This document shows positions 27,856 to 56,584 of a stretch of 64,000 nucleotides of DNA, piece by piece. The notes beneath the pieces were generated by a model. It ran no database searches. It was not told the origin of the DNA and saw only the letters and a program-made list of their open reading frames with translations. The DNA is taken from assembly GCA_038198935.1 (NCBI GenBank), contig JBBPZQ010000103.1, forward strand, positions 25,649-89,648, written 5' to 3'. Position 1 is the first letter of the stretch; each line of letters starts with the position of its first letter. The position numbers were made by a program, and so were the translations under genes. The stretch is from Anaerolineae bacterium (GTDB lineage Bacteria; Chloroflexota; Anaerolineae; JACRMK01).

Positions 27856-27925
27856 GTTCTGCTTGCTGCTCACGATGGCGGGGTGTATGCATAGTTGTAT
27901 TGACGTGAATCAGAAAGGTGGACAG

Positions 27926-30613
27926 ATGACTCAGGAATCCTCAAGAAAAATCGAAACAAGCAACCAAAGTGGCGGTATCAACATCAGCGGCGGCAATATC
28001 ATTAGTGTTGAAGGGGATTTTGTCGGGCGTGATCAGATCGTCAAGATTTCTGCTCCTGTTGCCATACACCAACTACCACCTGATTCGACTAACTTCATCG
28101 GTCGAGAAGAGGAAGTTAGCAAGGCACTCGCAATTCTGTCAACTAACATGGAAGCCCCTACAATTCTTATCTTCAACGGCAACGGGATGGGTGGGGTGGG
28201 TAAGACAGCGTTAGCTATACATATTGCTCATCAACTAATAGCGAGATACCCTGATAGTCAGCTGTTCGTGAATCTGCGTGGGGGAAGTGGTTCACCAATG
28301 AGTTCATCAGCGGCCATGGCCCATGTCATCAGATCATTTCACCCTGATGTGCGACTGCCTAACACTGTAGAGGATTTAACAGCGATCTATCGCAGTGTTT
28401 TGTACGGGCAGAGGATTCTGTTAATTCTCGATGACGCGGCAGATGCTGAGCAAGTGACCCCACTTCTCCCTAGTTCTTCATCGTGTGCGGTATTCATAAC
28501 CTCACGTAAACGCTTTGACCTGCCCGGCGTTCCCAGGGTTGATTTGGATGTGCTTTCGGCAGACGCTTCACGCGAGTTGCTGATGCGTTTGGACCCGCGC
28601 CTTCGTGATACCCCTGATATAGCTGCCCGAATTGCCTCTCTGTGTGGGCATTTGCCACTTGTCTTACGAATTGCCGGCTCTACCCTGAGAGCTAGGCCCC
28701 ATCTGATTCCAGCCGAATATGCCGGCGAATTGGCGGCAATAAGCCTCAGTTCACTTTCACAAGGGTCTGCTCACATCACCATCCAAGAGGTTTTCGACCT
28801 TAGTTACGGACAATTAAGCCCACAACTACAAGCAGCATGGGTTAAATTGGCTGTGTTCACATCTACGTTTGATCGCACGGCAGCGGCTGCTGTATGGAAC
28901 GTGGATGAAAGACAGACCAAGACGTGGCTAGACGAATTGGCGAACTCTAGCTTGATCAATCGGTACAATGAAACCCAACGTTATGCTCTACATCCCTTAT
29001 TGCTCGATTTCGCCTTGAGTTTCTCACCACAGTTTGATCTAACTGAAGCACATGAACGACACGCTCACTACTACCTCTCTGTAGCTCGCCAAGCTGGTAA
29101 ACTATACTTTGAGAGTGGAGAAGGGGTGCTGCGTGGTTTAGCTCTATATGACCAAGAGTGGCCGAACATTCAGTCAGCATTGACACGACTAGCTAAACAG
29201 GCCCCGGATAATTCCGTGGCTGCGCGGTTGTACTGCGATTACATTGACGCGAGTATTTATTACCTTGAACTTCGCCTGTCTCCAAAGGAACTAATCATGT
29301 GGTTGGAACGAGCAGTCGCCGCCGCTCGTTTATTAGGCGATAGACAGGCGGAAAGCAGCCACCTGAGCAACTTAGGCTTGAATTATTCAACACTAGGGGA
29401 AAGCCGTCAGGCCATAGAATATTACCAACAAGCGCTCACCATCGCGCGTGAAATAGGAGACAAACATGCCGAAAGTGTAGACCTAGTGAATCTTGGACAA
29501 GCGTATGCTACACTAGGTGAGATAAGGCATGGCATAGAGTTCTACACCGAAGCATTGCAAATAGCCAGAGAAATTGGAGATCGCCTCACAGAAAGCACAG
29601 TGCTGGATGGTTTGGGAGGGGCTTATTCTGCTCTAGGTGACTATCGGCGCGCCATTGAGTCCCATGAACAAGCATTACTAATTGCTCGTGCAATTGGAAA
29701 TAGACGAGGCGAAGGGAATATTCTCGGAAACCTAGGGGTTGCCTACGCCGCATTAGGCAATCTTCGCCACGCTATTGAGTTCTATGAACAGGCATTGATC
29801 ATTGCTCGCGAGATTGGTGATCGACGCAGCGAAAGTAACCAACTGGGCAGTTTAGGGAATGCTTATGCGGTCCTTGGTGAGGCTCACCACGCGATCGAAT
29901 ATTATGAACAAGCGTTACATATTGCGCGTGAATTGGGTGACCAAGTTAATCAAGGAGTCAATCTAGCAAATCTAGGAATAGCGTACACTCGTCTCGGGGA
30001 CATTCAACGCGCCTTTGAATTGTCTGAACAATCTCTGCTTATTGCACAGAGGACCGGCGACCGTCGAAGCGAAAGTAGCCGACTTGGTAATCTGGGAATG
30101 GCCTACGCATCACTAGGTGAAATACCCAATGCAATTCAATACTATGAGAAGGCGCTTGTCATCGCCCAGCAACTGGAGGATGCACGGTCTCTCGCTAACG
30201 TTTCGTTTGAGCTGGGCGTACTCTATGCCGAACATGATCGCTGGCACGACGGCCTCCGGTTGCTCGAACAGAGCCTTGCCATCCGTCGCCAATTCGACGA
30301 CCTCAACGCGCGCGCCGACACAATTTTTCAAATTGCTCGCACACACCACCTAATGAGTAATCTTGAAAATGCACGGGTACATTACCGCGATGCACTGCGC
30401 TTGTATCAACGGACCCATAACCAGCGCGGCATCGCCGCCTGCAAAAACGGTTTGGGCCGCCTGGCGATTCAGTTGGGCTTCAGTGCCGATGCGACACGGG
30501 AACTTGCTCAGGCGCACGAAATGTATGTTGAATTAGGAGACACGCAACGCGCCAGCGAGGTCGAAGAGGTTCTCCGGCTGGCTAATCACGCGAAGGAGAA
30601 ACAACCCGCATGA
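27926..30613 (+). CDS. STAND-family NTPase (NB-ARC-like P-loop) with C-terminal tetratricopeptide (TPR_12-type) repeat array
   Basis: AAAGGTGGA RBS; FIGREEE pre-Walker motif, Walker A GMGGVGKT, Walker B ILLILDD, about 10 TPR-like repeats (NLG.AY..LG....AIE.YEQAL.IAREIGDR). Local GC is visibly lower than the flanks. Confidence 0.8.
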   Translation: MTQESSRKIETSNQSGGINISGGNIISVEGDFVGRDQIVKISAPVAIHQLPPDSTNFIGREEEVSKALAILSTNMEAPTILIFNGNGMGGVGKTALAIHIAHQLIARYPDSQLFVNLRGGSGSPMSSSAAMAHVIRSFHPDVRLPNTVEDLTAIYRSVLYGQRILLILDDAADAEQVTPLLPSSSSCAVFITSRKRFDLPGVPRVDLDVLSADASRELLMRLDPRLRDTPDIAARIASLCGHLPLVLRIAGSTLRARPHLIPAEYAGELAAISLSSLSQGSAHITIQEVFDLSYGQLSPQLQAAWVKLAVFTSTFDRTAAAAVWNVDERQTKTWLDELANSSLINRYNETQRYALHPLLLDFALSFSPQFDLTEAHERHAHYYLSVARQAGKLYFESGEGVLRGLALYDQEWPNIQSALTRLAKQAPDNSVAARLYCDYIDASIYYLELRLSPKELIMWLERAVAAARLLGDRQAESSHLSNLGLNYSTLGESRQAIEYYQQALTIAREIGDKHAESVDLVNLGQAYATLGEIRHGIEFYTEALQIAREIGDRLTESTVLDGLGGAYSALGDYRRAIESHEQALLIARAIGNRRGEGNILGNLGVAYAALGNLRHAIEFYEQALIIAREIGDRRSESNQLGSLGNAYAVLGEAHHAIEYYEQALHIARELGDQVNQGVNLANLGIAYTRLGDIQRAFELSEQSLLIAQRTGDRRSESSRLGNLGMAYASLGEIPNAIQYYEKALVIAQQLEDARSLANVSFELGVLYAEHDRWHDGLRLLEQSLAIRRQFDDLNARADTIFQIARTHHLMSNLENARVHYRDALRLYQRTHNQRGIAACKNGLGRLAIQLGFSADATRELAQAHEMYVELGDTQRASEVEEVLRLANHAKEKQPA

Positions 30614-31881
30614 ACGAGGCAGACCGTCTTTGGGATGAACTGGACATCACCTACGCGCACTGGGGATTGAACGAGATTCCGTTTTCCGAAGTCCCGCCCT
30701 TGTTGCGCGAGTCGCAGTTGTCAGAGATTTTCACAGGCCGCACACAAGAATTGCGCGAGGTATTCAATCTGTTTCGCGGGCGCGAACGCAAACGCCTGTT
30801 TGTGTATGGCTGGGTCGGCATCGGCAAAACTGCCTTCATTCTTGAAGTGTTGAGCGTATTGCGCCGCCGAGCGAAAGATACATTAGCCGCGTACATCAGC
30901 CTGCCCCCAGAGACCGATTTGGCGACCGCGGCTCTGATCGCGCTCGCTCGCGAAATGGAAGACGACGAATGGGCGCAACACCAACTGAACCAGATGGGAT
31001 TGCGCCCGCGAACGCGCGCAGTCGAAAAAGAAACGACGGTGAAGGCTGGCTTAGCTGGCATGGGCGTCGAGACCAAAGAAGAAACCGTCCCGATTTCTCC
31101 GCCGCGTTTTCCTGCGCTGAGTTTTGAAGACCTATTGAAACGCGCGTTGCAGAAGTATCACCGCGTTGTCATTGCGATAGATGACCTCGACAAGCAAGAC
31201 CCGGCGCGCGTGCGCGAATTGCTGCGGAACGATCAGGGAATGCTCAAGGGCGGCGCTTGGTTCATGCTCACGGGGCATCCATCAGGCTTGACGCGCGATA
31301 TTGTAACGCGCGAACTGGGGTTGTTCGATCTCGCTATCGAGTTGAAGAAACTGGATCAACCCACAACCTATCGGATGCTGATCAACTACCTCAATAGCGC
31401 GCGTCCACACAATGCGCGGCGCGACCACGAAGATCCGCTTTCAGTCCGCCCCTTCACGCCTGAAACTGCGCGTATTCTTTGCGAACGGTCAGATGGGGTG
31501 CCACGTTGGCTCAATCGGCTGGGCAGTTATGTTTTGCTCAAGGCGGCTGAACTTCACGCCGACATCATCACTCCCGATGTGTTGCAGCACGGATTAGAGT
31601 ATGCCGATCAACAGTTGCGCGGACAAACAGGGCTGACGCTTGAAGATCGCTATGTGCTTGAGCTGGTGTTAGAGAAAGGCACTTTCTCAGATGACTCCGC
31701 AACACTGGATGATCTTGAACACCTCAAGGTTAAAGAGTTCAACGAGGTCATGCCGATCCTAGAGAAACTGGTGCAACTCGATCTGTTGCGTCGCGTGCCG
31801 ACCGAACGCGCAACGGAGTATGCGCCCACGCCGATGGTGTCAGGCAAGAGCGAATCGTCTTCTGAAATCGCGCATGACTAA
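30610..31881 (+). CDS. AAA+/STAND-like ATPase (AAA_16 / Orc1-Cdc6-like P-loop NTPase)
   Basis: 4-nt ATGA overlap with the upstream gene; FTGRTQEL motif, Walker A GWVGIGKT, Walker B VVIAIDDLD. Confidence 0.7.
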   Translation: MNEADRLWDELDITYAHWGLNEIPFSEVPPLLRESQLSEIFTGRTQELREVFNLFRGRERKRLFVYGWVGIGKTAFILEVLSVLRRRAKDTLAAYISLPPETDLATAALIALAREMEDDEWAQHQLNQMGLRPRTRAVEKETTVKAGLAGMGVETKEETVPISPPRFPALSFEDLLKRALQKYHRVVIAIDDLDKQDPARVRELLRNDQGMLKGGAWFMLTGHPSGLTRDIVTRELGLFDLAIELKKLDQPTTYRMLINYLNSARPHNARRDHEDPLSVRPFTPETARILCERSDGVPRWLNRLGSYVLLKAAELHADIITPDVLQHGLEYADQQLRGQTGLTLEDRYVLELVLEKGTFSDDSATLDDLEHLKVKEFNEVMPILEKLVQLDLLRRVPTERATEYAPTPMVSGKSESSSEIAHD

Positions 31882-36222: not shown

Positions 36223-38010
36223 CTATTGCAGAAGATGTAATTGCTTACCTGTCGCGGATTCCCAGATCCGTGCGCTGCCATCATGGCTTGCCGTCGCTAC
36301 CGTCCTGCCATCTGGGCTCCAGGCTACCATGTTCACTGCGCCTTGATGCCCGCGCAAGACCGCGACGACTTGTCCGGAATTGGCGTCCCAAATTTGCGGT
36401 TCTTGGGCTGTCAGCACTCGGCTGGTTGCCACCCGTTGCCCGTTCGGGCTCCACGCCACATCGAAACTCTCTCCAGACGTTTTCAACGTCAACAGAATTT
36501 CACCCCTGGAGGGCTCCCAAACGCGCACCTCATTAATGGCAGCGGTGGCGATCCGCTTCCCCTCAGGACTCCAGACCGCATCAAAAACGCGATCGTTGTG
36601 CGGTAAGATGATAAGATTTTTCCCGCTGTTGGGATCCCACACCCGTGCCGTCTGATCGTCACTGGCTGTGAGCAGGCGCTGTCCGTCGGGACTCCAACTT
36701 ACCATGCGCACGCCTAACAAGTGCCCTGCAAGAACCGCCAAAGGCTTGCCCGTGTCGGCATCCCATACCCGTGCTGTCAGATCCAAACTTGCGGTGGCAA
36801 GGCGCTTCCCATCTGGGCTCCATGCCACCCGACTGACTAGAATTTGATGCCCCGTCAACGTTGAGAGCAGTTGGCCCGTCTGTGCGTCCCACACCCGCGC
36901 CCACACCCGCGCCCGCACATCCAAAGTCGCGGTCGCGAGGCGATCGCCTTTTGGGCTCCACGTGATCTGATTGACTTTCCCAAAGTCTGTCACTCCCAAC
37001 GTCAGCAGCAACTTGCCGCTGCCCACGTCCCATACACGCGAAACGTCGCTGGCGGTGGCGAGTTGTTTTCCATCGGGACTCCACTCCACGTTGAAAATCG
37101 CGGCCTTGCGAGTACCAAAAGTTTCGGAGAGAGTTCGTAGTCGCTTACCCGAGACGGAGTCCCACACATACGCCACGCCGTCGGAGTCCGCAGTTGCCAA
37201 CTGTGTGCCATCGGGACTCCATGCCACGCTGGTTACGCGTGGAAGGTTCGGCACGGCGCTTGCCGCGGGTGTTGGCGCAGCGGTGGTGCGGCTGATGGGC
37301 GTGAGGGTGGGCGCAACTGCCGCCGTCACAGTTAACAACATCTGATCATTCCACTTCCCGCCTGTCAATTCGCCTAAATCGGGAAAGCCGCTGTCCAGCA
37401 CTGCTCGTGTGGCTGGACTCGGCGCCGCAGGCGGCACGCCATCCGGCACGACGATCTGCTGCCCCGACACCGCCTCAACGGTCACGCCCGCAGCTGCTGC
37501 CTCCACGCTTCCCGTTTTGACGATTGTCCAGGTACGGTGCAAGCGCACATCGTAATTAACGAAGAACTCGGTGCCAGTGGCGGTGATCGTGACGCCACCA
37601 GGCGTTTGAAATTGTATGCGCTGTGCTGCGCGCGCTTGTGGCGTGATGGTGTTGAACACGCTGCCATTATTCAGCAGGAACTGAATGAGCAGCGGCGCGC
37701 TAGGGTCAACTCCTGCGTACTTCAGTTGCACCTCAGAATCATGGAAGATGTCCACCACGAGCAGGTCGGCAAACCTCAACAGTGCTTCGCCTTGAGGCTT
37801 CACATCAATCTTGTCACCTTGGCGCGCGACACGCGTAGAGCCGACGGGGATCGTTTCGCCTGCTGCGGATTGCGGCTGGAAAACGACTTCGGCCTTTTGC
37901 GTTTCCAGCGTCGCATCGGTTTCGGATGAAGATGGCCCCAATGGGCTAATCGGACCACATGCGAACAGCAATAGCAGCATCGCGAACAGTCGGCGATTAC
38001 GCGCGTGCAT
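36223..38010 (-). CDS. WD40-repeat lipoprotein with N-terminal non-WD domain
   Basis: Signal peptide with lipobox LLLFAC; at least 8 WD40 repeats (AWSPDG.QLATAS.D.TARVWD). Confidence 0.8.
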   Translation of the reverse strand: MHARNRRLFAMLLLLFACGPISPLGPSSSETDATLETQKAEVVFQPQSAAGETIPVGSTRVARQGDKIDVKPQGEALLRFADLLVVDIFHDSEVQLKYAGVDPSAPLLIQFLLNNGSVFNTITPQARAAQRIQFQTPGGVTITATGTEFFVNYDVRLHRTWTIVKTGSVEAAAAGVTVEAVSGQQIVVPDGVPPAAPSPATRAVLDSGFPDLGELTGGKWNDQMLLTVTAAVAPTLTPISRTTAAPTPAASAVPNLPRVTSVAWSPDGTQLATADSDGVAYVWDSVSGKRLRTLSETFGTRKAAIFNVEWSPDGKQLATASDVSRVWDVGSGKLLLTLGVTDFGKVNQITWSPKGDRLATATLDVRARVWARVWDAQTGQLLSTLTGHQILVSRVAWSPDGKRLATASLDLTARVWDADTGKPLAVLAGHLLGVRMVSWSPDGQRLLTASDDQTARVWDPNSGKNLIILPHNDRVFDAVWSPEGKRIATAAINEVRVWEPSRGEILLTLKTSGESFDVAWSPNGQRVATSRVLTAQEPQIWDANSGQVVAVLRGHQGAVNMVAWSPDGRTVATASHDGSARIWESATGKQLHLLQ

Positions 38011-40273
38011 CGGCTACCTCCCGTCGAGATGCTTCATCCGCCGACGCAAAAACATAAAAGCCCAGCCCGCCCAACGCGCCGATGCTGAGACCGCAGATCA
38101 ATGCCAACGCGAAATTGTTCGACCAAAGATCGCTGAACAACGCCGACAAGATGGCTGCGAGCGCGGTACCCATTGGGATGAACAACAATCGCTGCGTTCG
38201 CGCGCGCGCCAACGCGGCGCTCACACCCAAGCCAGCACCAAGCAGCGCACCAACGATTAGGTGTCCCGCGTTCAGCGGGGGAGCAGCTACGGCAACATAG
38301 AGCGCAAAGGCGATAGCGCTCAGGGGCGCGCAGACGAGTAGCATAGCCAACCATTTGCGTTTGGGTTGTGCTTGCCAACGCCACAAACACAGCCCCATAC
38401 CGAAACCGATCGCCGCGCCGATTGGGAACATGGTGAGAAACGCCAGTGCCACAACGCCGATCAGCAAATTCGGTAAGAGCGCAGCCGACTTGAAGTATGT
38501 GAGCAATGCGAAGCCGAGCGCAAAACCTAAGCCAACGCCTAAAGCGCCGCCGCCGGCTTGCTTCAAGAAGCGAAACTGCCTGTCTCTCTCATCGGCTAGC
38601 GCGTCCGATACCGCGCGCCTCTTTTCGATTTCACTTTCGCGCGCTTGTCTCTCTTCGTTCTGTTGCTGCTCGCGCTCGTGTGCTGCCTTGCTTGCGTCCA
38701 AGAAGGCTCGCGCCGAATCGTCCAGCGTGTCCTCGTGCTGTGCGCGCCACTGCATCGCGCCATCTAACTGGTACCCGTGATACAAGAAACTTTCGTTTTG
38801 ATCTGACTGCTCCCATTCTTGCGCGCGCTCGTTGAGGCGGCGCTTCACCCGCTCATCAGCGCGGCGGTCGTCGAGCCACGTTCGCAGCAAGTCCCATTCG
38901 CGGATGAGCGCTTCGTGTGCCACCTCGACCGTATCGGACTCCGCGATGACTAATCTCGCCTCCACCAGCATCGTTAGCACCGCATCCACACTTGGTTGAT
39001 CCGCACGGTGTGGAGACAATGAGCGGCGGGCGACCCGTCTCCGTGTATCGGGCGCGTCATCTCGCATCTCCGTCAAACTCACGAAGATGCCGCGCGCGAT
39101 GCGCTGCTGCTCGTCGCGCAATTGCAAATAGACAGCCGTAGCACTTTGTGCAATCGCGCCCCGCACGCCGCCTGCCTCGTGATAGCCTTGCAGCGTCAGT
39201 TGTCGCCCCCGCCGACGCTTCCACGTTTCGAGCAGCGCGTGAGAGAGCAAGGGCAGAGCACCAGGCTCATGGCCCACATCGGTGAGCAGCAAGTCCACCA
39301 AGCCTGCCTCAAACTGCCAGTTGCCCTCTCGCGCAGGTTGCTCGATGGCGCGGCGCAGTTCGTCGGGCTGCATTGCGTTGAGGTTGTACTGGTGCTGCGG
39401 CAGCACGCGGAAGAAGTCGGGGAAGACCGCGCACTGCTCGTAGAAGTCGGCGCGAACGGTGAGCACGACGCGCACTGGCCCCGCCGTGTCGTCCGCGACG
39501 GCATGGAGCAAGTTGTCCACGAACGCCTTGCGCTCGATGGGCTCTTTGCACGCGGTGAACACTTCCTCGAACTGGTCCACGACGAGCAGCAGTCGCTCGC
39601 CGCCATCCTGCTTGAGCGCGCGCGACGCGGCTAGGTCGAGGCTGCGCGCGTCGTGCGCGAGGTCGTCTATCAGCGTCGCCTGCGCGGTGACGGATTCGGA
39701 CGCGCGCGTGAGTGATGCCGCGAGTTCTTTCAGTGGATGCTCGGTCGGTTTGATGAGGTGCAGTTGCCAGCGTGGGCTGCCGTCGGGCATGACGAAGTGC
39801 TGCGGCTTGTCGGGATGCATAGCGGCGACGAGACCTGCGCGCACTACCGACGATTTGCCGCTGCCCGACGCGCCGACGACGGCGAGCAAGCGCTGCTCGC
39901 GCACATGGGCGACCAATTTGGCGGTGACCGCTTCGCGGCCGAAGAACAGCGGCGCATCCGCCACGTCGAAGTAGAGTAAGCCTTTGAACGGCGGCTCGCC
40001 GGGCGCGGGTTCGTCGGATTCAGCAGCGGCTGGCGCAGCCCGCTCACCAAAAATGACAGTCGCGCCCTCTCCAACGTTATAGATGTCGCGGATCACCTTG
40101 TCACGCCCGACAACATCTCCGCCGGCACGAACATGGCCGCTGCTGACGTTCACACCACCCGATTGGCTGGTGGTGGACCCACCCGCGGCGGAATTCGTCG
40201 GGGTATCTGCGCTGGGTTCATCGTTTGCGTTCGCACTCACGAGCTTTCTCCTGTCGAGCATCGTATGCCTCAC
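37997..40273 (-). CDS. STAND-type P-loop NTPase with N-terminal Gly-rich motif, coiled-coil and C-terminal multi-pass transmembrane domain
   Basis: FFGREAV pre-Walker motif, Walker A GASGSGKSS, Walker B LLLVVDQFEE, Glu/Arg-rich coiled coil, about 6 hydrophobic helices at the C-terminus; overlaps the WD40 gene by 14 nt. Confidence 0.7.
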   Translation of the reverse strand: MRHTMLDRRKLVSANANDEPSADTPTNSAAGGSTTSQSGGVNVSSGHVRAGGDVVGRDKVIRDIYNVGEGATVIFGERAAPAAAESDEPAPGEPPFKGLLYFDVADAPLFFGREAVTAKLVAHVREQRLLAVVGASGSGKSSVVRAGLVAAMHPDKPQHFVMPDGSPRWQLHLIKPTEHPLKELAASLTRASESVTAQATLIDDLAHDARSLDLAASRALKQDGGERLLLVVDQFEEVFTACKEPIERKAFVDNLLHAVADDTAGPVRVVLTVRADFYEQCAVFPDFFRVLPQHQYNLNAMQPDELRRAIEQPAREGNWQFEAGLVDLLLTDVGHEPGALPLLSHALLETWKRRRGRQLTLQGYHEAGGVRGAIAQSATAVYLQLRDEQQRIARGIFVSLTEMRDDAPDTRRRVARRSLSPHRADQPSVDAVLTMLVEARLVIAESDTVEVAHEALIREWDLLRTWLDDRRADERVKRRLNERAQEWEQSDQNESFLYHGYQLDGAMQWRAQHEDTLDDSARAFLDASKAAHEREQQQNEERQARESEIEKRRAVSDALADERDRQFRFLKQAGGGALGVGLGFALGFALLTYFKSAALLPNLLIGVVALAFLTMFPIGAAIGFGMGLCLWRWQAQPKRKWLAMLLVCAPLSAIAFALYVAVAAPPLNAGHLIVGALLGAGLGVSAALARARTQRLLFIPMGTALAAILSALFSDLWSNNFALALICGLSIGALGGLGFYVFASADEASRREVADARA

Positions 40274-40396: not shown

Positions 40397-40868
40397 CTAA
40401 TCCGGCACTACCTCCCACATTGGAAGCAATTGCTCCAGCGATTCCTTCTGCTCGTCGGGCAACGTCACGAACAGCCCTTTCGCTTCAACAGCGACTGAAT
40501 CATCCGCGAGGCGAATCTCGCCGCTGCCGCTCATGCCGTGCCGACTCAGTTTGTCCACGCGACCGATCACGGTGAGCGGCTGGCCAATCGGCACGGGTTT
40601 CAAGAAGCGCAGTTCGAGTTTCGCCGTCATCATCCACTGTTCGCGGCCCGCCGTCATCGAAGCGCGGCCAATCGTCTCATCGAGCAGTGCCGTCGCGATG
40701 CCGCCGTGCAGCACGCCGGGATACCCTTGATGCTGTTCCTCTGGCGTGAAGCGCACGACCACGCTGCCGTCGTCTTGCTCGTAGAAAAAAGTCTTGAGTC
40801 CGATCGGATTGTGCATCCCGCAGATGAAACACATCTGCGAGTTGGGTTGTTTGCGAGTGATGTCCATG
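40397..40868 (-). CDS. PaaI-family hotdog-fold thioesterase
   Basis: Start MDITRK; FICGMHNPIGL...GVLHGGIATALLDETIG motifs. Confidence 0.75.
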
Positions 40869-40886
40869 TGAAAGTGAAACGAAAAA

Positions 40887-40962
40887 GAAATCACCAAGAT
40901 ACCAAGACACAAAGAAGTGTTCGGAATCTTTGTGTCTTGGTGTCTTGGTGTCTTGGTGATTT
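40887..40962. repeat. intergenic hairpin with tandem-repeated arms (ACCAAGA / TGTCTTGG x3)
   Basis: aaatcaccaagataccaagacacaaag...ctttgtgtcttggtgtcttggtgtcttggtgattt. Confidence 0.7.
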
Positions 40963-41767
40963 AATAGATTTGTTTCTGCTTCTTGCGCCGCTTCTCTTTT
41001 TTGCTGACGGGCTGCGATGGCGTCTCGTCGGCAGGCTCATCATCGCTCGATACAGCGTCGGCTTGCGGCGTGATCGCATCAGCCAGCGCGCGATACATCG
41101 CGCTCGACAGTGCGGGCGTCGTGTGTCGCTGCAAGTAGGACTTCAAACCATTGAGCGGCATGATGTGCTCTGCCTGCTCAGGCACTTGCAATTCGACCTC
41201 CGGTTTCGTGAACACGATCAAGGGCTTCACGGGCGCGTCCGCACCTTCGCCGTTCGGCTTCAACCATTTTTGCAACCGAGCGATTTGGGATTGCGCTTCG
41301 GCCGTCGGGTTGCCCAAGCCGCCGTGCCGCCAATCGTGCCACACGCGGCTGAGCGAGAACGGCTGTCGCCACTGCTTGCCGTCGAAACTGACAAGTCCCG
41401 TTTCGTCTTTTATCACGATCACGTGCAGACCCGTCGGTGTGAGCAAGACGTGTTCCGCAGGTGTGTAGTAGTTGATCAGACGATAGCGCTTGTCCAATCC
41501 CTTCAACACCTTCTCCAGTCGCTGATCGTCGCGCGGCTCGATCTGCCAACGCTCTGCCAGCCGTCCGCCGATGGTCGCCACAATCGTGCCGACGATCAGC
41601 GACACGTAGGAGAGCGCGATGTACTCTGGCGCCGTCAGCGTTGGATTGGCCAAGCCGCCGAGCGCGATGAACAAACCCGGCAGCATGATCGCCAGCCCGC
41701 CGAGGCTCGCGTACTTTGCGAACTTAGTTTTGCGATCAATTTGTGATTGGTTGGTGTAAGTGATCAT
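40961..41767 (-). CDS. NERD-domain protein with N-terminal TM helices
   Basis: 268 aa; NERD-like core (RYRLINYYTPAEHVLLTPTGLHVIVIKDETG) and KKEKRRKK tail. Confidence 0.6.
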   Translation of the reverse strand: MITYTNQSQIDRKTKFAKYASLGGLAIMLPGLFIALGGLANPTLTAPEYIALSYVSLIVGTIVATIGGRLAERWQIEPRDDQRLEKVLKGLDKRYRLINYYTPAEHVLLTPTGLHVIVIKDETGLVSFDGKQWRQPFSLSRVWHDWRHGGLGNPTAEAQSQIARLQKWLKPNGEGADAPVKPLIVFTKPEVELQVPEQAEHIMPLNGLKSYLQRHTTPALSSAMYRALADAITPQADAVSSDDEPADETPSQPVSKKEKRRKKQKQIY

Positions 41768-50694: not shown

Positions 50695-53361
50695 TCAAAG
50701 CAATGCTGGTTGTGCAATCACCACCACATCGGCAAATTCGGTTGCTTGCAGTGCTTCGTATTCTGCTTGCTTGACCTTGATGTACTTCCATTCCGTGCCC
50801 GTCAGCCGCGTGGCGTTCTCCGCCCAGAGCGTGGCCGCGCGGTCTTTGTTTGCCACGTCCACATCCTCACGCCCTTTGGTCTCTATCAGGTAATTCGTAC
50901 CCTGTTCGGCCACAGCCACGAAGTCAGGCTCATAGTAGCGCAAGTTGTTGTTGGCGTCGGTGTATTCGATGGCGAAGCCAAATTGCTCAGGCAGCTTGGC
51001 GAAGGCCGCAACGTCGGGCGCGTTGTGCAGGAACTTGGCGAATGATTTTTCAAACTCGTTGCCACACGGCACGAGGTTGAACACGCACTTGCGCGAGTCG
51101 AACGTCGGGCGTGAATACGGAAACGGCGGCGTCACCGATAGTTTCCGACCCGCATCCAAGAGTTGCGGTTGCAGTTCTTGCACGACGAGCGGACGCAGCA
51201 CACGCACAAACTCTCGCACCGTGACGAACTGAACCACTTCGGAACTGATGGCTTTGATGAGCGCGGGGTCGTCCAAGTTGACGCGCTCACCAAAGGCGTA
51301 CACCTCCAAGAACTCGCGGACTTTCGGCACGAGCGCGGCGAACTGCGACGGCAGTTTTACATCTTGTGCGATGCGCTTGGCGTAGTAGGAGATGACCTCT
51401 TGCGAAGTTTGTACGTCGGGCAGTTTGTAGTCGCGCTCGACAATCTTTTGCAGCGTGATGAAGTCGTAGCCTTCATAGTGGAACTGCTGAATATCCGCCT
51501 GCTCGGACTTGCGCGGCAGCTTGGGTGCGCGTATCGCGGACACGTCTAGCGCGACAATCTCGTCGGCTAAGGTGCGCTTGCGCGTCAGTATCGGGCTGAG
51601 GACGGGCAGCGCGATGTCTTTGTCTAGCTTGTCTGGGTCGGGCGCGATGGTGACGATGGTGAGTTTGTCTTTGCCGACTTCAAATGTGTCTAATTTGATG
51701 TCCTCGTCTTTTTCGAGTTGCTCGACAAACTCGATGAATGCCTTATTGCCGATGACGTCCACGCGCTCGGTGTAGGCTGTAGCGAAGCCGCGAAACATGA
51801 GCCGCAAGCCGCGCCCGATGGTTTGTTCGGGCAAGATGTTGGCCTTCGATGAGTAAGGTCGCAAACCCACCACCACTGTTACGTTCTGCACGTCCCAGCC
51901 TTCGCGCAGCATCAACACGCTGACAATCGCATTGATGGGACTGTGCAGGTCGTCCACTTCGCGGGCGACGGTGCGCGCTTTGTCGAGGTCGCGCTTCGAC
52001 ACTTCGCCTTTGCGGTCGGTGTGGATGACGAGCAATTGGTCGCCGCCGAACTCGGATGGGTACTTGGTGCGCAGGTAGTCGCCCACGTCCTCGGCTTCGT
52101 CGGTGGTGTTCATCATCACGAACAACAGCGGCTTGCGCTTGAGTTGTGCGAGTTGTTCGCGGTATTCGCGCCAGCGTTCCACGCCTGCCGTGAGGTATGC
52201 CTTGTATTTGGTGCTCGTAACAGACGAAGGAGTTTCACGGATGCCCGTCGTGATGCCTTTCGTTGGACGCTTGACGATGCCATCAATAATGGCTTGCTTG
52301 AGCGGGTAATCGTAAATCGTCCAGGTGAACAGGCTGCCCATGCTGTAACGCGGCGTGGCGGAGAAGTCGAGTTGGGCAGCGACCCCCACCCCAACCCTCC
52401 CCCGTTCGCCAACTGCGCGAACAGGGGAGGGAGTTTGCTCCCCTTCCCCTGTCCGTGCTTTTTCGGACGGGGGAAGGGGTAGGGGGATGGGGGTCAGGCT
52501 CGCGTGCAACTGGCGGATACTCTTGTTCCATTCGCTTTCTTCGTCGTGGGTGTGGTGCGCCTCGTCGTTGACGACCAACAATCGCCCGCCGCGTTTGATG
52601 ATGCGCGTATCGAAGTCCGCAATCTCCATTGGTTGTGCGGGCGGCTTCGCGCCAAGCACCGCCGTCATGATGTCGGGTTCGTCGCCGTCGCCGTTGTCTC
52701 GTTCGTAAAATTGTTGGATGTTGGTCAGGTATAACGCGCCGAGCGAGTGTGCGCGTTCGCCATCGCCGCGCATGTAGCAATCGAAGTCCCAGTGGATTTT
52801 CAGTTCGGGCGGGATGAGCGGGTCAACCTTGAAGATTCTGCCGCTGGCAAAATCGGCCTTCAATCGCTCGAAGACAATCACGTTGGGAGCGATGACGAGA
52901 AACGTCGTGGCGTAATCGTCGGCATTTTCCAACACGGCATTGAAGTATTGCCACACGATCGCCAGCGACATGATTTTCGTTTTGCCGCTGCCCGTCGCCA
53001 TCTTGATGCAGTAGCGCGCGAACTCGTCGTATTGCAAGAGCCGCAAGTCTTTGTTCGAGCCTGCGTATTGCTCGACCAAATCCTTGTGACGGCGCACGCG
53101 CGCGACTTCGTACAGATAAATCAGCGTCTCGATGGCGAACTTCTGCGAGTCGTGATAGGTGAAGGCGCGGCCATTGGGCAGGCGATGGTCGGTCTTGAAC
53201 CAATGATTGAGCAGGGCGCGTGTCGTCGCGGTGACGCCTTTGTACTTGTCAGCGCGCCAGGCGTCAACGGCTTTGCGGATGGCGGGCACGCACGGCGCGG
53301 TCTTGAGGCGTGGCTCCAGTAGCGAGAGTTGGCTATCAGGTTTGCGAGCGCGGCGGGGCAT
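50695..53361 (-). CDS. res: Type III restriction enzyme Res subunit (helicase-like)
   Basis: 888 aa; helicase motif I TGSGKT, motif II VVNDEAHH, Type III Res C-terminal region. Contains an in-frame GC-rich palindromic insert. Confidence 0.85.
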   Translation of the reverse strand: MPRRARKPDSQLSLLEPRLKTAPCVPAIRKAVDAWRADKYKGVTATTRALLNHWFKTDHRLPNGRAFTYHDSQKFAIETLIYLYEVARVRRHKDLVEQYAGSNKDLRLLQYDEFARYCIKMATGSGKTKIMSLAIVWQYFNAVLENADDYATTFLVIAPNVIVFERLKADFASGRIFKVDPLIPPELKIHWDFDCYMRGDGERAHSLGALYLTNIQQFYERDNGDGDEPDIMTAVLGAKPPAQPMEIADFDTRIIKRGGRLLVVNDEAHHTHDEESEWNKSIRQLHASLTPIPLPLPPSEKARTGEGEQTPSPVRAVGERGRVGVGVAAQLDFSATPRYSMGSLFTWTIYDYPLKQAIIDGIVKRPTKGITTGIRETPSSVTSTKYKAYLTAGVERWREYREQLAQLKRKPLLFVMMNTTDEAEDVGDYLRTKYPSEFGGDQLLVIHTDRKGEVSKRDLDKARTVAREVDDLHSPINAIVSVLMLREGWDVQNVTVVVGLRPYSSKANILPEQTIGRGLRLMFRGFATAYTERVDVIGNKAFIEFVEQLEKDEDIKLDTFEVGKDKLTIVTIAPDPDKLDKDIALPVLSPILTRKRTLADEIVALDVSAIRAPKLPRKSEQADIQQFHYEGYDFITLQKIVERDYKLPDVQTSQEVISYYAKRIAQDVKLPSQFAALVPKVREFLEVYAFGERVNLDDPALIKAISSEVVQFVTVREFVRVLRPLVVQELQPQLLDAGRKLSVTPPFPYSRPTFDSRKCVFNLVPCGNEFEKSFAKFLHNAPDVAAFAKLPEQFGFAIEYTDANNNLRYYEPDFVAVAEQGTNYLIETKGREDVDVANKDRAATLWAENATRLTGTEWKYIKVKQAEYEALQATEFADVVVIAQPALL
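52381..52495. repeat. GC-rich nested palindromic element inserted in-frame in res
   Basis: gacccccaccccaaccctcccccg...ggggtagggggatgggggtc outer arms plus two inner hairpins; encodes ...PLPLPPSEKARTGEGEQTPSPVRAVGERGRVGVGV.... Confidence 0.7.
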
Positions 53362-53715: not shown

Positions 53716-54479
53716 TCTATGTCAAACGGATTGTCGCGGCTATACCAGTTCTTCGGATACATGGCGCTGTCATAGCGGTCCACCAGTAAACTTACTTTGT
53801 CCTCGACGTAGCGATAGTAACGCATCTCCCTCCTCACAAAAGCGCGATAGACTGCCCAGTTCATGTAATCAATCACTTGCAGACACGGCTCGCCTACCGC
53901 ATTCTGAGGTAAGACGACAATCTCTGTTTCCACCTTGGTCTCCCAACGGGTTTCAAAATTGGCGACGCCGCGTTGAATCGCTTGCTCCAATTGGGCTTGA
54001 CGCTTGCGCGAGCCACGTTGGGCAAAGTAGATCAGATTGCGCGCATAGCGATGCAAGACATTCTCGAAAAGCAAACTGATCAAGTAATCATAGAACGTGC
54101 TTTCATTAGCATGAAACGAATTGCGAAAAACGCGCTCAACTTTGCGCGCAACGACGAACTGGGCTTTGAAATCCTGCGCGCGCAACATTTTGAACACGGC
54201 CTGGCGAACTTCGGGCGTATCATCCTTCGCATGAAACGCTGCGTATGTTTTGCCGATGGAAGGAATATCTCGCAAATACTCGTCGGCGGCAAGCTCGGCG
54301 TGCAATTCCGCCAGCGCGCGGCGAATCGGGCTCGCGTCGCTCGTCTCGATGAATCCCAAAATCAATATAGGCGAGCAGCCCTCCTGCCCGACAATCAGGT
54401 TGCCGTGGCGGTCGTAGAACGTCGGGTCGCCTGACTCGTCCACAAAATACCAACACGACCCCTCTGCCGCTTCCTTCAT
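53697..54479 (-). CDS. DUF3800-family protein
   Basis: 260 aa; N-terminal [12 protein letters not shown] motif typical of DUF3800; start overlaps the mod stop by 4 nt. Confidence 0.6.
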
Positions 54480-56584
54480 TCGTCCACCTTCACCCGCACC
54501 GTCTTCGTCGTGTCGTTCCCCAGAATGTCAATCACCTTGACGACAATCGTGTACTCGCCCGCCGCGTCGTAGCTGTGCGTCGTCGTCTTCTGCAAGTCGC
54601 GGTCTTTGCGCGTGCGATAGGTCTGCCATTCGTTGTGGAACGTGTCGCCCTTGTTGTCCCAATCCACCGCCCAATAGTCAATCCACTGCGACCAATGCTT
54701 GATGGCGCGCTGCACGTCGGCGGGCACGTCGTCGGGCGGGGTGACGAAATCGGTTAGGGTGAGAGTGACCGTGCGCGTAGAGACGGCTCGCCGAGCCGTC
54801 TCTACCTTCACATCCACCGCGAGCGCGGCGAGTTCAAAAAATTTGATGTCGCCTTGCTCGACGGCCTTCTTCTCCAACACTTCGCGCGGGATACGCACGA
54901 AGCGCACGGTGAGGTTGGCGAGCGCGGCTTGCTGCTTGGCGACTTCGTTCAATTCGAAGGCGAAGTCCCAACCGAGCACGTCCACGCCATTCGTCGTGGG
55001 CGCATCCGCGCCGGTGCCGACCGCGCGCTTGAACTCGGTGACGATATTGGTCACGTCGCCGACCGCGATGGGCGCGTCCACCACGCCGACATGCACCATG
55101 CGCCCCGCCTTCAAACCGTGCAGCCATGTGTAGCCCGTGATGGGGCGCGCGTTGTACAGTTTGAGAATGAAGTCGGTGTAAGCGCGATGCACGGCGTGGA
55201 GCTCTCCCTCACCCCTAACCCCTCTCCCGCTGGGCGAGGGGGACGCACTGCTCCCTTCTCCCTGCGGGAGAAGGGCTGGGGATGAGGGAGAGCTGCCGAA
55301 TTCATCCTTTACCCACAACTGCCGCTCGTACTTGCCCAAGTTTTGCACGACGAACGGGCGCACGTTGTCAATCGAGAGCAGACGCTTGCGCGTGGTGTGG
55401 ATGGCGAAGCGCCCCAGGTCGCAGGTAATCCAACGGCGGTTCAACTTCTCCGCGACGGCGGCGGTCGTGCCGCTGCCGCAGAAGCAATCGAGCACGAGGT
55501 CGCCTTCGTTCGATGACGCTTTGAGGATGCGTTCGAGTAAGGCTTCGGGTTTTTGTGTGGGGTAATCCACTCGTTCTAAAGCAGTCGGTGACAAAATGGG
55601 AATATCCATCCAAAGAGTGGACGCCGAAACTCCAGGTCTCTCGTCGAGATAGTATTTGATATAAGGTTGTCCTGGGCCGCTGAAATACAGTTTTCCAGTC
55701 TTATACATTTCTTCCATTTTGTCTCTTGTATAAGCCCAATAACGACCTTCTGGCGGGTAAACGCCATGAAACTCATATCGCGTATCGCCACCAGGTTTTG
55801 CAGCGGTGGGAGTTACAAGTCTGTATCGCCTGCCTTGCTCATCAATCTTGTTATACTGTTGTGCAATCTGCTGGTCGCTAAATGGAACGTACTGAGTTCG
55901 CCACTGAAAGTTTTGTGATTTCACGTAGAAAAAAATAGTGTCGTGCACCACATCATAGTGACGAGCGCCCTGTTTAGTATCGCCGTGTGCAGTAGTTCTT
56001 TTCCAAACGACCTCGTTCACAAAATTCTGTAAGCCAAACACCTCATCCATTACAGCCTTTGCATAGTGTGACACATGGTAATCTAAATGCACATAGATAC
56101 TCCCATCCTCCGTCAGCAACTCGCGCAACAACACGACCGTCTCGTAAAACCATTGCAAGTACGAATCGAGCCCGCGGCCCCACGTATCGCGGTAGGCTTT
56201 CATCTCGATGACGCTTGGCTCTTTGGTGAAGGATTCGATGTCGTCGGACTCTCCCTCACCCCCGTCCCCTCTCCCGCTGGGCGAGGGGGGCACGGTCGCC
56301 GTGAACGAAAAGTCCGCGCCGACGTTGAACGGCGGGTCAATGTAAATCAAGTTCACCTTGCCCGCGAACTCGTCGAGCAGCGACGGCAGCACATATTTCT
56401 TGTCGCCCCAAATCAAGCGGTTGCGCCATTCGGAATCGCGTCCCGCGCTGAACATATCGAGCGCGCGCTGGCGTTGCTGCGCGGACTCGTTCACCGTCTC
56501 GACAGTCTGAAACGGCAGCGCCACGCGCAACGGGGCGACGCGCTTGCCGTCTTTGTATTTGCCATCCCACATCAGTTCGGTCAT
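54476..56584 (-). CDS. mod: Type III restriction-modification methyltransferase Mod subunit (N6-adenine)
   Basis: 702 aa; IYIDPPF motif [13 protein letters not shown] motif I, Type III target-recognition domain between them. Carries two in-frame GC-rich inserts. Confidence 0.85.
55199..55295. repeat. GC-rich nested palindromic element inserted in-frame in mod
   Basis: gagctctccctcacccc...ggggatgagggagagctg outer arms; inner CCCTTCTCCC-TGC-GGGAGAAGGG hairpin. Confidence 0.7.
56248..56290. repeat. half copy of the GC-rich element in mod
   Basis: actctccctcacccccgtcccctctcccgctgggcgagggggg: left outer arm and first inner hairpin only. Confidence 0.55.

Follow-up and report, generated by a model that had tools for sequence, protein, structure and literature searches.

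Architecture of the gene pair

We analysed a 64,000-nucleotide (nt) stretch of an Anaerolineae bacterium genome (contig JBBPZQ010000103.1; hereafter the window) and describe here two overlapping genes on its minus strand. The first, gene A, encodes a STAND (signal transduction ATPases with numerous domains) NTPase ending in a six-helix membrane domain; the second, gene B, encodes a predicted exported protein in which a FecR-like domain is followed by WD40 repeats (Table 1). An initial annotation, made from the letters alone, had described both open reading frames (ORFs), and we recovered them on the same strand, at the same coordinates and with the same 14-nt overlap (37997-38010), the ATG of gene B lying 14 nt before the stop codon of gene A. 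A GGGAGG Shine-Dalgarno sequence stands inside gene A, 6 nt from the ATG of gene B, and together with the overlap it suggests translational coupling of the two genes. The start of gene A is ambiguous within 40261-40273: the longest ORF begins with GTG at 40273, the public call on the same contig uses an ATG four codons downstream at 40261, which gives 754 amino acids (aa), and neither codon is preceded by a clear Shine-Dalgarno sequence.

Gene A matches the Pfam nSTAND1 family (PF20703) with an E-value of 5e-127 and a score of 425 bits (cut-off 27.1), covering positions 1-378 of the 379 in the profile, and both its Walker A (GxxGxGKS) and Walker B (hhhhDQFEE) motifs are intact. The first ~95 residues match no Pfam family and include a glycine-rich motif that reads QSGGVNVSSGHVRAGGDVVGRDK...GATVIFGE. 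At the other end of the NTPase module, the linker towards the membrane domain contains 17 acidic and 13 basic residues among 78, and AlphaFold2 (AF2) predicts a helix from aa 562 into the first transmembrane (TM) helix.

Hydropathy delineates six hydrophobic segments in the C-terminal region of gene A, and an AF2 model built from 15 sequences shows six helices at aa 562-596, 603-632, 637-663, 669-688, 692-713 and 721-742, with a predicted local distance difference test score (pLDDT) of 88.5 and a predicted template modelling score (pTM) of 0.84. The loops after helices 2 and 4 are basic (WRWQAQPKRK and ARARTQR) and predicted to face the cytoplasm, which fits a topology with six TM helices and both termini inside. 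In the family alignment the helices are unusually rich in glycine, with repeated small-xxx-small motifs, and gene A conforms to the family motifs QAxGGAxGxGLGYG, FPxGxxxGxxIGLxLWxWR, GALLGAGLGxGAG and AGLxLGGLxGLGFY. A Foldseek comparison of the model with the PDB found no resembling solved structure (best E 0.13). Of the features first proposed for protein A, the glycine-rich motif, the STAND P-loop NTPase and the roughly six C-terminal TM helices all stand, and a coiled-coil-like character of the linker is suggested by its composition and a predicted helix.

The N-terminus of protein B, MHARNRRLFAMLLLLFAC, fits a PROSITE-PS51257-like lipobox (LFAMLLLLFAC, with the cysteine at position 18 and three arginines in the first seven residues). 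The pattern asks for [LVI][ASTVI][GAS]C preceded by an n-region that is basic and an h-region that is hydrophobic, the cysteine standing at position 15-35. The export of this protein by way of a lipobox, proposed at the outset, is thus upheld as a prediction by pattern match, and all topology indicators agree with the suggested arrangement of the NTPase inside and protein B outside. The signal peptide also contains a twin arginine followed by L-F-A (37990-38001, aa 4-7, NRRLFA), which loosely resembles the twin-arginine translocation (Tat) consensus S/T-R-R-x-F-L-K. It would be plausible for a WD40 propeller to be exported pre-folded by the Tat route, although the twin-arginine motif is inconsistent among orthologs.

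Several comparisons identify the beta-rich N-terminal domain of protein B, which spans ~200 aa, as FecR-like. Pfam FecR (PF04773) matches eight of nine orthologous partners at E <= 0.05 (best E 3.8e-8), NCBIfam gives weak matches to the Leptospira FecR-domain lipoproteins Lsa33 and LipL45, and the best PDB match by sequence is the anti-sigma factor 4m0n. Consistently, the top four Foldseek hits of the domain model are to 4m0h, 4m0n and the PupR signalling domain 6ovk, with probabilities of 0.97-1.0. The C-terminal region (Pfam WD40, E 3.6e-57) contains exactly eight repeats with W[SN]P[DEKN]G cores, in accordance with the non-WD domain and at least eight repeats originally reported. Over 339 aa it shares 46% identity with the WD40 region that follows the TM helix of a fused relative (P0020), and it is 27% identical to the WD40 region of a homologous partner protein (locus L005, see below). 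Blade 3 of the propeller (~36880-36920, aa ~364-376) shows a small internal duplication, RARVWARVWDAQ, and the fused relative P0010 has a comparable stutter, AKVWDAQIWDAQ.

Table 1. Features of the gene pair, with positions in the window.
Feature	Position	Strand	Basis or detail
Gene A, nSTAND1 STAND NTPase with C-terminal six-TM domain	37997..40273	-	ORF and Pfam; 758 aa
N-terminal Gly-rich motif QSGGVNVSSGHVRAGGDVVGRDKVIRDIYNVGEGATVIFGE, aa 37-77	40043..40165	-	no Pfam match; common to NB-ARC-TPR protein
nSTAND1 NTPase module, aa 95-494	38792..39991	-	Pfam
Walker A	39848-39874	-	GASGSGKSS, aa 134-142
Walker B	39563-39589	-	LLVVDQFEE, aa 229-237
EVAHEALIREW motif	38894-38926	-	sequence
Charged helical (coiled-coil-like) linker from NTPase to membrane domain, aa 495-572	38558..38791	-	composition and AF2 helix
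Six-helix Gly-rich membrane domain, aa 573-744	38042..38557	-	hydropathy, AF2 and family profile
GGGAGG Shine-Dalgarno of gene B, within 3' end of gene A	38017..38022	-	sequence
Gene B, predicted exported FecR-like/WD40 protein	36223..38010	-	ORF and Pfam; 595 aa
Predicted signal peptide with lipobox LFAC, Cys18	37957..38010	-	pattern match
FecR-like domain with conserved C-terminal extension (PPxPxVPAxR), aa 31-226	37333..37920	-	Pfam, PDB, Foldseek
Pfam FecR match, aa 67-169	37504-37812	-	Pfam
Pro/Thr/Ala-rich linker, aa 227-257	37240..37332	-	composition
Eight WD40 repeats, beta-propeller, aa 258-595	36226..37239	-	Pfam and repeat cores

Pairing and modularity across homologous loci

A profile of the C-terminal domains of protein A and its homolog P0001, run in an exhaustive HMMER search against 1.84 billion representative proteins, retrieved a six-TM (6TM) family of 61 proteins (46 at E <= 1e-10), in which the match is C-terminal in every full-length protein. 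All 42 long members contain nSTAND1, and their N-termini carry TIR_2 in 14 cases, EAD7 in 4, CHAT in 3 and trypsin in 1. P0128, P0132 and P0140 are among the TIR-bearing members. Domains of these four kinds serve prokaryotic conflict systems as effectors and adaptors (Kaur et al, 2020, PMC7159879; Kaur et al, 2021, PMC8195603). The named sources of the family are a "Chloroflexi bacterium" metagenome-assembled genome (MAG), with 96-97% identical fragments of both genes, and a Herpetosiphonaceae MAG; the rest are metagenome contigs. A 15-sequence alignment proved too divergent for patterns to be derived from it. Scanning GTDB representative genome contigs with TM and FecR patterns returned no locus, and scans of metagenomes returned none and then one (L006), so that the taxonomic range of the family is poorly known. 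A word-indexed search with the TM-domain alignment found only a fragment from the same organism, probably because Gly/Ala/Leu-rich words swamp the candidates; the equivalent search with the FecR-like alignment found three proteins only.

In all ten nSTAND1-6TM loci that we retrieved, an exported FecR-like gene lies directly downstream of the NTPase gene, either overlapping it or at most 40 nt away (Table 2). These loci differ at 27-60% protein identity. The hidden Markov model (HMM) of the FecR-like domain recognises the partners in L010 and L011 with E-values of 5.5e-56 and 4.1e-38. Among the other top-120 homologs of the NTPase, the 6TM domain is found in none but P0001 and the FecR-like domain in none; the two domains thus co-occur in 10/10 cases versus 0/119. 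The co-conservation expected of the two genes therefore holds, and both are real genes rather than chance ORFs. The nSTAND1-6TM/FecR-like pair apparently constitutes a small, undescribed family.

Table 2. The ten loci in which an nSTAND1-6TM gene is followed by a FecR-like partner.
Locus	NTPase	Signal or anchor of partner	C-terminal module of partner
Window	gene A	lipobox pattern	WD40
L001	P0001	long uncleaved anchor	other beta-rich module
L004	P0125	lipobox pattern	
L005	P0126	lipobox pattern	WD40
L006			looks like SH3-like segment and Pro-rich tail
L007	P0128	long uncleaved anchor	
L008	P0163		TIM-barrel/glycoside-hydrolase-like, by eye only
L009	P0132	long uncleaved anchor	looks Ig-like or Thr/Pro-rich
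L010	P0159		other beta-rich module
L011	P0183 (weakest 6TM-family hit)		other beta-rich module

All partners carry a signal for export or for anchoring, but the lipobox, noted on protein B in the initial annotation, is not a conserved feature, several orthologs having an uncleaved TM anchor instead. Likewise, the WD40 propeller does not define the partner: it is present in two loci, and the C-terminal module varies while the FecR-like domain is constant. The invariant feature of the partners is the FecR-like domain at the outer face of the membrane.

A related arrangement occurs at L003 (660-3850), where a caspase (Peptidase_C14)-HEAT protein whose C-terminal membrane region is polytopic and Gly-rich is followed, with a 4-nt overlap, by the TM-anchored FecR-like protein P0123, which also has a long uncleaved anchor. 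The TM region of the caspase-HEAT protein has no detectable homology to the 6TM family (hhalign probability 1.4%; biased 8-bit HMM score). Judging from this locus, the FecR-like partner may serve more than one kind of cytoplasmic module.

Gene A has more than 7,000 homologs, and the named top matches come from Chloroflexi (Anaerolineae, Caldilineaceae, Thermoflexales). We compared the C-termini of those 106 of the top 120 in which the EVAHEALIREW motif could be located. In 83 of them, exactly one strongly hydrophobic segment lies 80-120 aa past the motif and precedes a region of 200-750 aa that is WD40, FGE-sulfatase or other; 19 are without a TM segment, many of these being PAS, GAF or histidine-kinase fusions or fragments; and only P0001 has a polytopic C-terminus like that of A. 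Around the 83 single helices, lysine plus arginine within 15 residues averages 5.14 on the N-terminal side versus 2.22 on the C-terminal side, with the N-terminal side higher in 79 proteins (Wilcoxon p 8.5e-15). This positive-inside bias places the NTPase of the single-pass relatives in the cytoplasm and their WD40 or FGE-sulfatase region outside, and since such proteins make up most of the set, an extracytoplasmic sensor is the norm of this Chloroflexi clade. The premise of the initial annotation, that the repeats of bacterial STAND proteins are fused and cytoplasmic, consequently fails for the closest relatives of gene A.

The two halves of gene A differ in their affinities. The NTPase core has a median identity of 56.6% to the single-pass relatives and 32.9% to the other 6TM members (59.9% to P0001), whereas in the membrane domain the identity to the 6TM family is 35-43%. 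Such modular exchange of the core indicates that the 6TM domain and the FecR-like partner form a transferable sensor cassette. By sequence comparison, the window pair seems to be assembled from three parts, namely a local Chloroflexi NTPase that brings its N-terminal motif, a 6TM and FecR-like cassette, and a WD40 propeller of the type found in fused neighbours.

The N-terminal motif of protein A occurs in 17 of the 119 top homologs and in 0 of the 29 other 6TM members. It recurs in the window in an otherwise unrelated STAND protein, an NB-ARC-TPR protein encoded at 27863-30613 (tblastn E 2.9e-6; SGGINISGGNIISVEGDFVGRDQIV); this second copy (27956-28045) lies at the N-terminus of that protein and is the sole other copy in the window. 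The behaviour is that of an adaptor or assembly motif which several proteins share. Rich in G, V and N and beta-prone, the motif recalls in its composition the amyloid signalling motifs associated with NLRs (nucleotide-binding oligomerization domain-like receptors; bioRxiv 10.1101/2020.01.06.895854). A paired C-terminal copy on an adjacent effector, which defines that class, is absent, and we therefore did not assign the motif to it and rejected a BASS (bacterial amyloid signalling sequence)-type amyloid pair. The NB-ARC-TPR protein (916 aa, plus strand) carries its version, SGG(V/I)N(V/I)S...GD(V/F)VGRD as in the nSTAND1 protein, at aa ~32-61. Its gene is overlapped by one for an AAA_16/ATPase_2 protein (423 aa; 30610-31881, plus strand), and the two make up a second, unrelated STAND pair in a patch of low GC content (0.49 vs ~0.59).

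The genes neighbouring the pair encode a 4HBT thioesterase, a NERD-domain protein, FabF, PlsX and Nnr. The thioesterase (40397-40912) and NERD (40961-41767) genes, both on the minus strand, lie directly upstream of gene A, before fabF and plsX, and are probably outside the system because they are absent from the other family loci. Further away on the same strand, a protein with ResIII helicase and restriction-endonuclease domains (50695-53361) and an N6/N4 DNA methylase (54476-56584) look like a type III-like restriction-modification system. Near other family members (L004, 225-659; L008, 3172-4995; L009, 1-4936; L011, 1-4913 and 9131-9439) lie genes of a conflict type, whose products are a TCAD2 protein, a TIR protein of 607 aa encoded separately, proteins with CHAT and caspase domains, a Tc/ABC-toxin-like protein of 3050 aa and a ParE toxin.

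A candidate trans-membrane receptor and its alternatives

With moderate confidence, we interpret the pair as the split trans-membrane sensor of an NLR-like STAND receptor that signals from the outside in, and the system is probably of a conflict or defence type. Protein B would be exported and tethered at the outer face of the cytoplasmic membrane, through a lipid anchor here and through a TM helix in orthologs, and its variable C-terminal module, in this case an eight-bladed WD40 propeller, would bind an extracytoplasmic ligand. The constant FecR-like domain would then pass the ligand event to the six-helix membrane domain of A. On the cytoplasmic side, the nSTAND1 NTPase would respond with the NTP-dependent oligomerisation that is typical of STAND proteins and switch on the N-terminal output, which would be TIR, CHAT, trypsin or EAD7 in other members and in A the short Gly-rich motif only. 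Physical contact between the 6TM and FecR-like domains, the direction of signalling, the ligand and the output are the parts of this scheme that we infer.

A number of observations weigh against such a receptor. PADLOC 2.0, which covers Avs, bNACHT and other systems, gave no full-length match and only short P-loop matches to mad8 and mad3, and a defence system catalogued there was accordingly rejected. The immediate surroundings of the pair consist of housekeeping genes (plsX, fabF, nnr) and include no defence island, and Pfam scans of protein A revealed no recognised effector domain. The predicted topology is based on hydropathy, pattern matching and the positive-inside rule. Moreover, the Pfam FecR score of protein B itself is 21.5 bits, under the gathering score of 24, and the AF2 model of its FecR-like domain, made from a three-sequence alignment, is poor (pLDDT 58). 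Finally, the 6TM domain has short, weakly conserved extracytoplasmic loops and its conserved motifs are intramembrane, so that a contact surface for the partner is not evident.

The abundance of glycine in the membrane helices admits a different role, in which the 6TM domain is itself the effector: its GxxxG-rich helices, once oligomerised, would form a membrane-disrupting pore, with the FecR-like/WD40 protein as sensor or inhibitor. TM effectors are known among STAND defence proteins, and the small-xxx-small motifs would suit a pore, as would the lack of a recognisable enzymatic effector in the window protein and of a PDB match that might suggest a transporter or enzyme role for the fold. However, at least 22 of the 42 long members already possess an N-terminal effector or adaptor (the TIR, EAD7, CHAT and trypsin domains counted above), so that the place of the sensor falls to the 6TM domain at the C-terminus, and its strict co-occurrence with an exported partner suits a relay better. 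We thus regard a pore as unlikely.

We assign a similarly low likelihood to a regulatory module outside biological conflict that would sense the status of the cell wall, S-layer or polysaccharides, in the manner of the STAND regulators MalT and AfsR. Such a function would agree with the housekeeping surroundings, which show no mobile-element signature, with the BTAD/SARP, HTH, histidine-kinase, PAS and GAF members among the closest NTPase relatives, and with the classical involvement of FecR domains in nutrient and envelope signalling; the glycoside-hydrolase-like appearance of the L008 partner would also be in keeping with it. It is harder to reconcile with the TIR, CHAT, trypsin and EAD7 N-termini of the family, which are hallmarks of conflict and cell-death systems, with the TCAD2, TIR, CHAT, caspase, Tc-toxin and ParE genes in family neighbourhoods, or with the variable C-terminus of the partner, a property typical of diversifying sensors.

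Signalling could also run from the inside out. NTP binding or hydrolysis by the STAND module would then change the conformation of the 6TM domain and thereby govern the exported FecR-like/WD40 protein, in the way that FtsEX acts on EnvC. A cytoplasmic NTPase joined to a polytopic domain and a tethered partner is formally like such mechanotransmission systems, and the enzyme-like look of the L008 module fits a controlled activity outside. Nevertheless, STAND NTPases are known as ligand-gated oligomerising switches and not as mechanotransducers, the TIR, CHAT and trypsin domains at the N-terminus point to an output in the cytoplasm, and most partner modules (WD40, possible Ig-like, Pro/Thr-rich) are of a binding rather than an enzymatic kind, all of which makes this direction improbable. 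That A and B are unrelated neighbours with a chance overlap, as adjacency in the window alone would allow given that short overlaps are common in compact genomes, is effectively refuted by the conserved gene neighbourhood, the same pairing recurring in ten of ten independent loci and the 6TM and FecR-like domains occurring exclusively together.

Characterised bacterial STAND and NLR-like immune sensors such as Avs and bNACHT detect cytoplasmic ligands. An entire nSTAND1 clade of Chloroflexi, by comparison, appears to put its sensor domains outside the cell, and in the small sub-family described here the sensor is split into a putative membrane relay domain and an exported FecR-like adaptor whose binding modules can be swapped. 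If the proposed relay is correct, NLR-like switches could watch the cell surface for phage adsorption, neighbouring cells or envelope damage, and the pair would exemplify modular design and show the FecR fold in a new role, beyond sigma/anti-sigma signalling. More tentatively, the 6TM domain and its FecR-like partner might represent a surface-receptor cassette, transferable and not described before, through which cytoplasmic STAND switches become pattern-recognition receptors that span the membrane. The binding module outside the cell, WD40 or another, would in that case be exchangeable and coupled across the membrane to death effectors of the TIR, caspase-like or protease kind. This would be the bacterial parallel to Toll-like receptors, with the same logic on an NLR chassis, and the pairing with a caspase-HEAT protein at L003 hints that the cassette is not restricted to one kind of cytoplasmic module.

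Comparison with known systems

The core of protein A is a full-length member of the nSTAND1 conflict NTPases (PF20703; PMC7159879; PMC8195603), and the TIR, CHAT, trypsin and EAD7 N-termini of its 6TM family are typical of that group. The difference lies in the sensor position, which is occupied by a six-helix domain instead of repeats, with the putative sensor itself supplied in trans by an exported FecR-like protein. FecR is mentioned in neither of these two papers (0 occurrences), and the searchable literature yielded nothing relevant on FecR combined with STAND, NACHT or TIR, the pair not being described there.

In the FecR and PupR anti-sigma regulators, the FecR domain is a periplasmic protein-protein signalling module. 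Protein B would resemble these regulators (6ovk, 4m0n) in having, near the membrane, a predicted extracytoplasmic FecR-like domain as a candidate relay module; however, it lacks the cytoplasmic anti-sigma domain, its partner is a STAND NTPase, and its FecR-like domain is followed by WD40 repeats. Only the 18-aa signal peptide precedes the FecR-like domain, where an anti-sigma domain and TM helix would be expected, and no extracytoplasmic function (ECF) sigma factor or TonB-dependent transducer adjoining gene B was seen among the neighbouring genes. A classical FecR anti-sigma factor was therefore rejected.

The tripartite logic of output, NTPase and repeat sensor is common to the pair and to the cytoplasmic NACHT/NB-ARC-WD40 NLR-like proteins (Apaf-1-like STANDs, Avs, bNACHT). 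In these proteins the sensor is fused and cytoplasmic, whereas here the WD40 repeats are encoded by a separate ORF with a predicted lipobox signal for export, and a fused cytoplasmic NLR-like protein was rejected on these grounds. The idea of an extracytoplasmic STAND sensor nevertheless has a precedent, as some STAND/C-type-lectin (CLec) targets diversified by diversity-generating retroelements (DGRs) are predicted to hold their sensor domains in the periplasm (Dore et al, 2024, PMC10907252). Those proteins are fused, combine a C-type-lectin sensor with a DGR, and have neither a 6TM domain nor a FecR-like partner.

The nearest counterparts are the single-pass nSTAND1-TM-WD40 and nSTAND1-TM-FGE-sulfatase proteins of Chloroflexi (P0005, P0010, P0020, P0004), whose cores are 50-62% identical to that of A and whose WD40 regions reach 46% identity to that of B. 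They likewise place the NTPase inside and the WD40 repeats outside, and some carry the same Gly-rich N-terminal motif. Unlike them, however, the window pair does not confine this arrangement to one polypeptide with one TM helix and no FecR-like domain, but distributes it over six helices and a separate partner.

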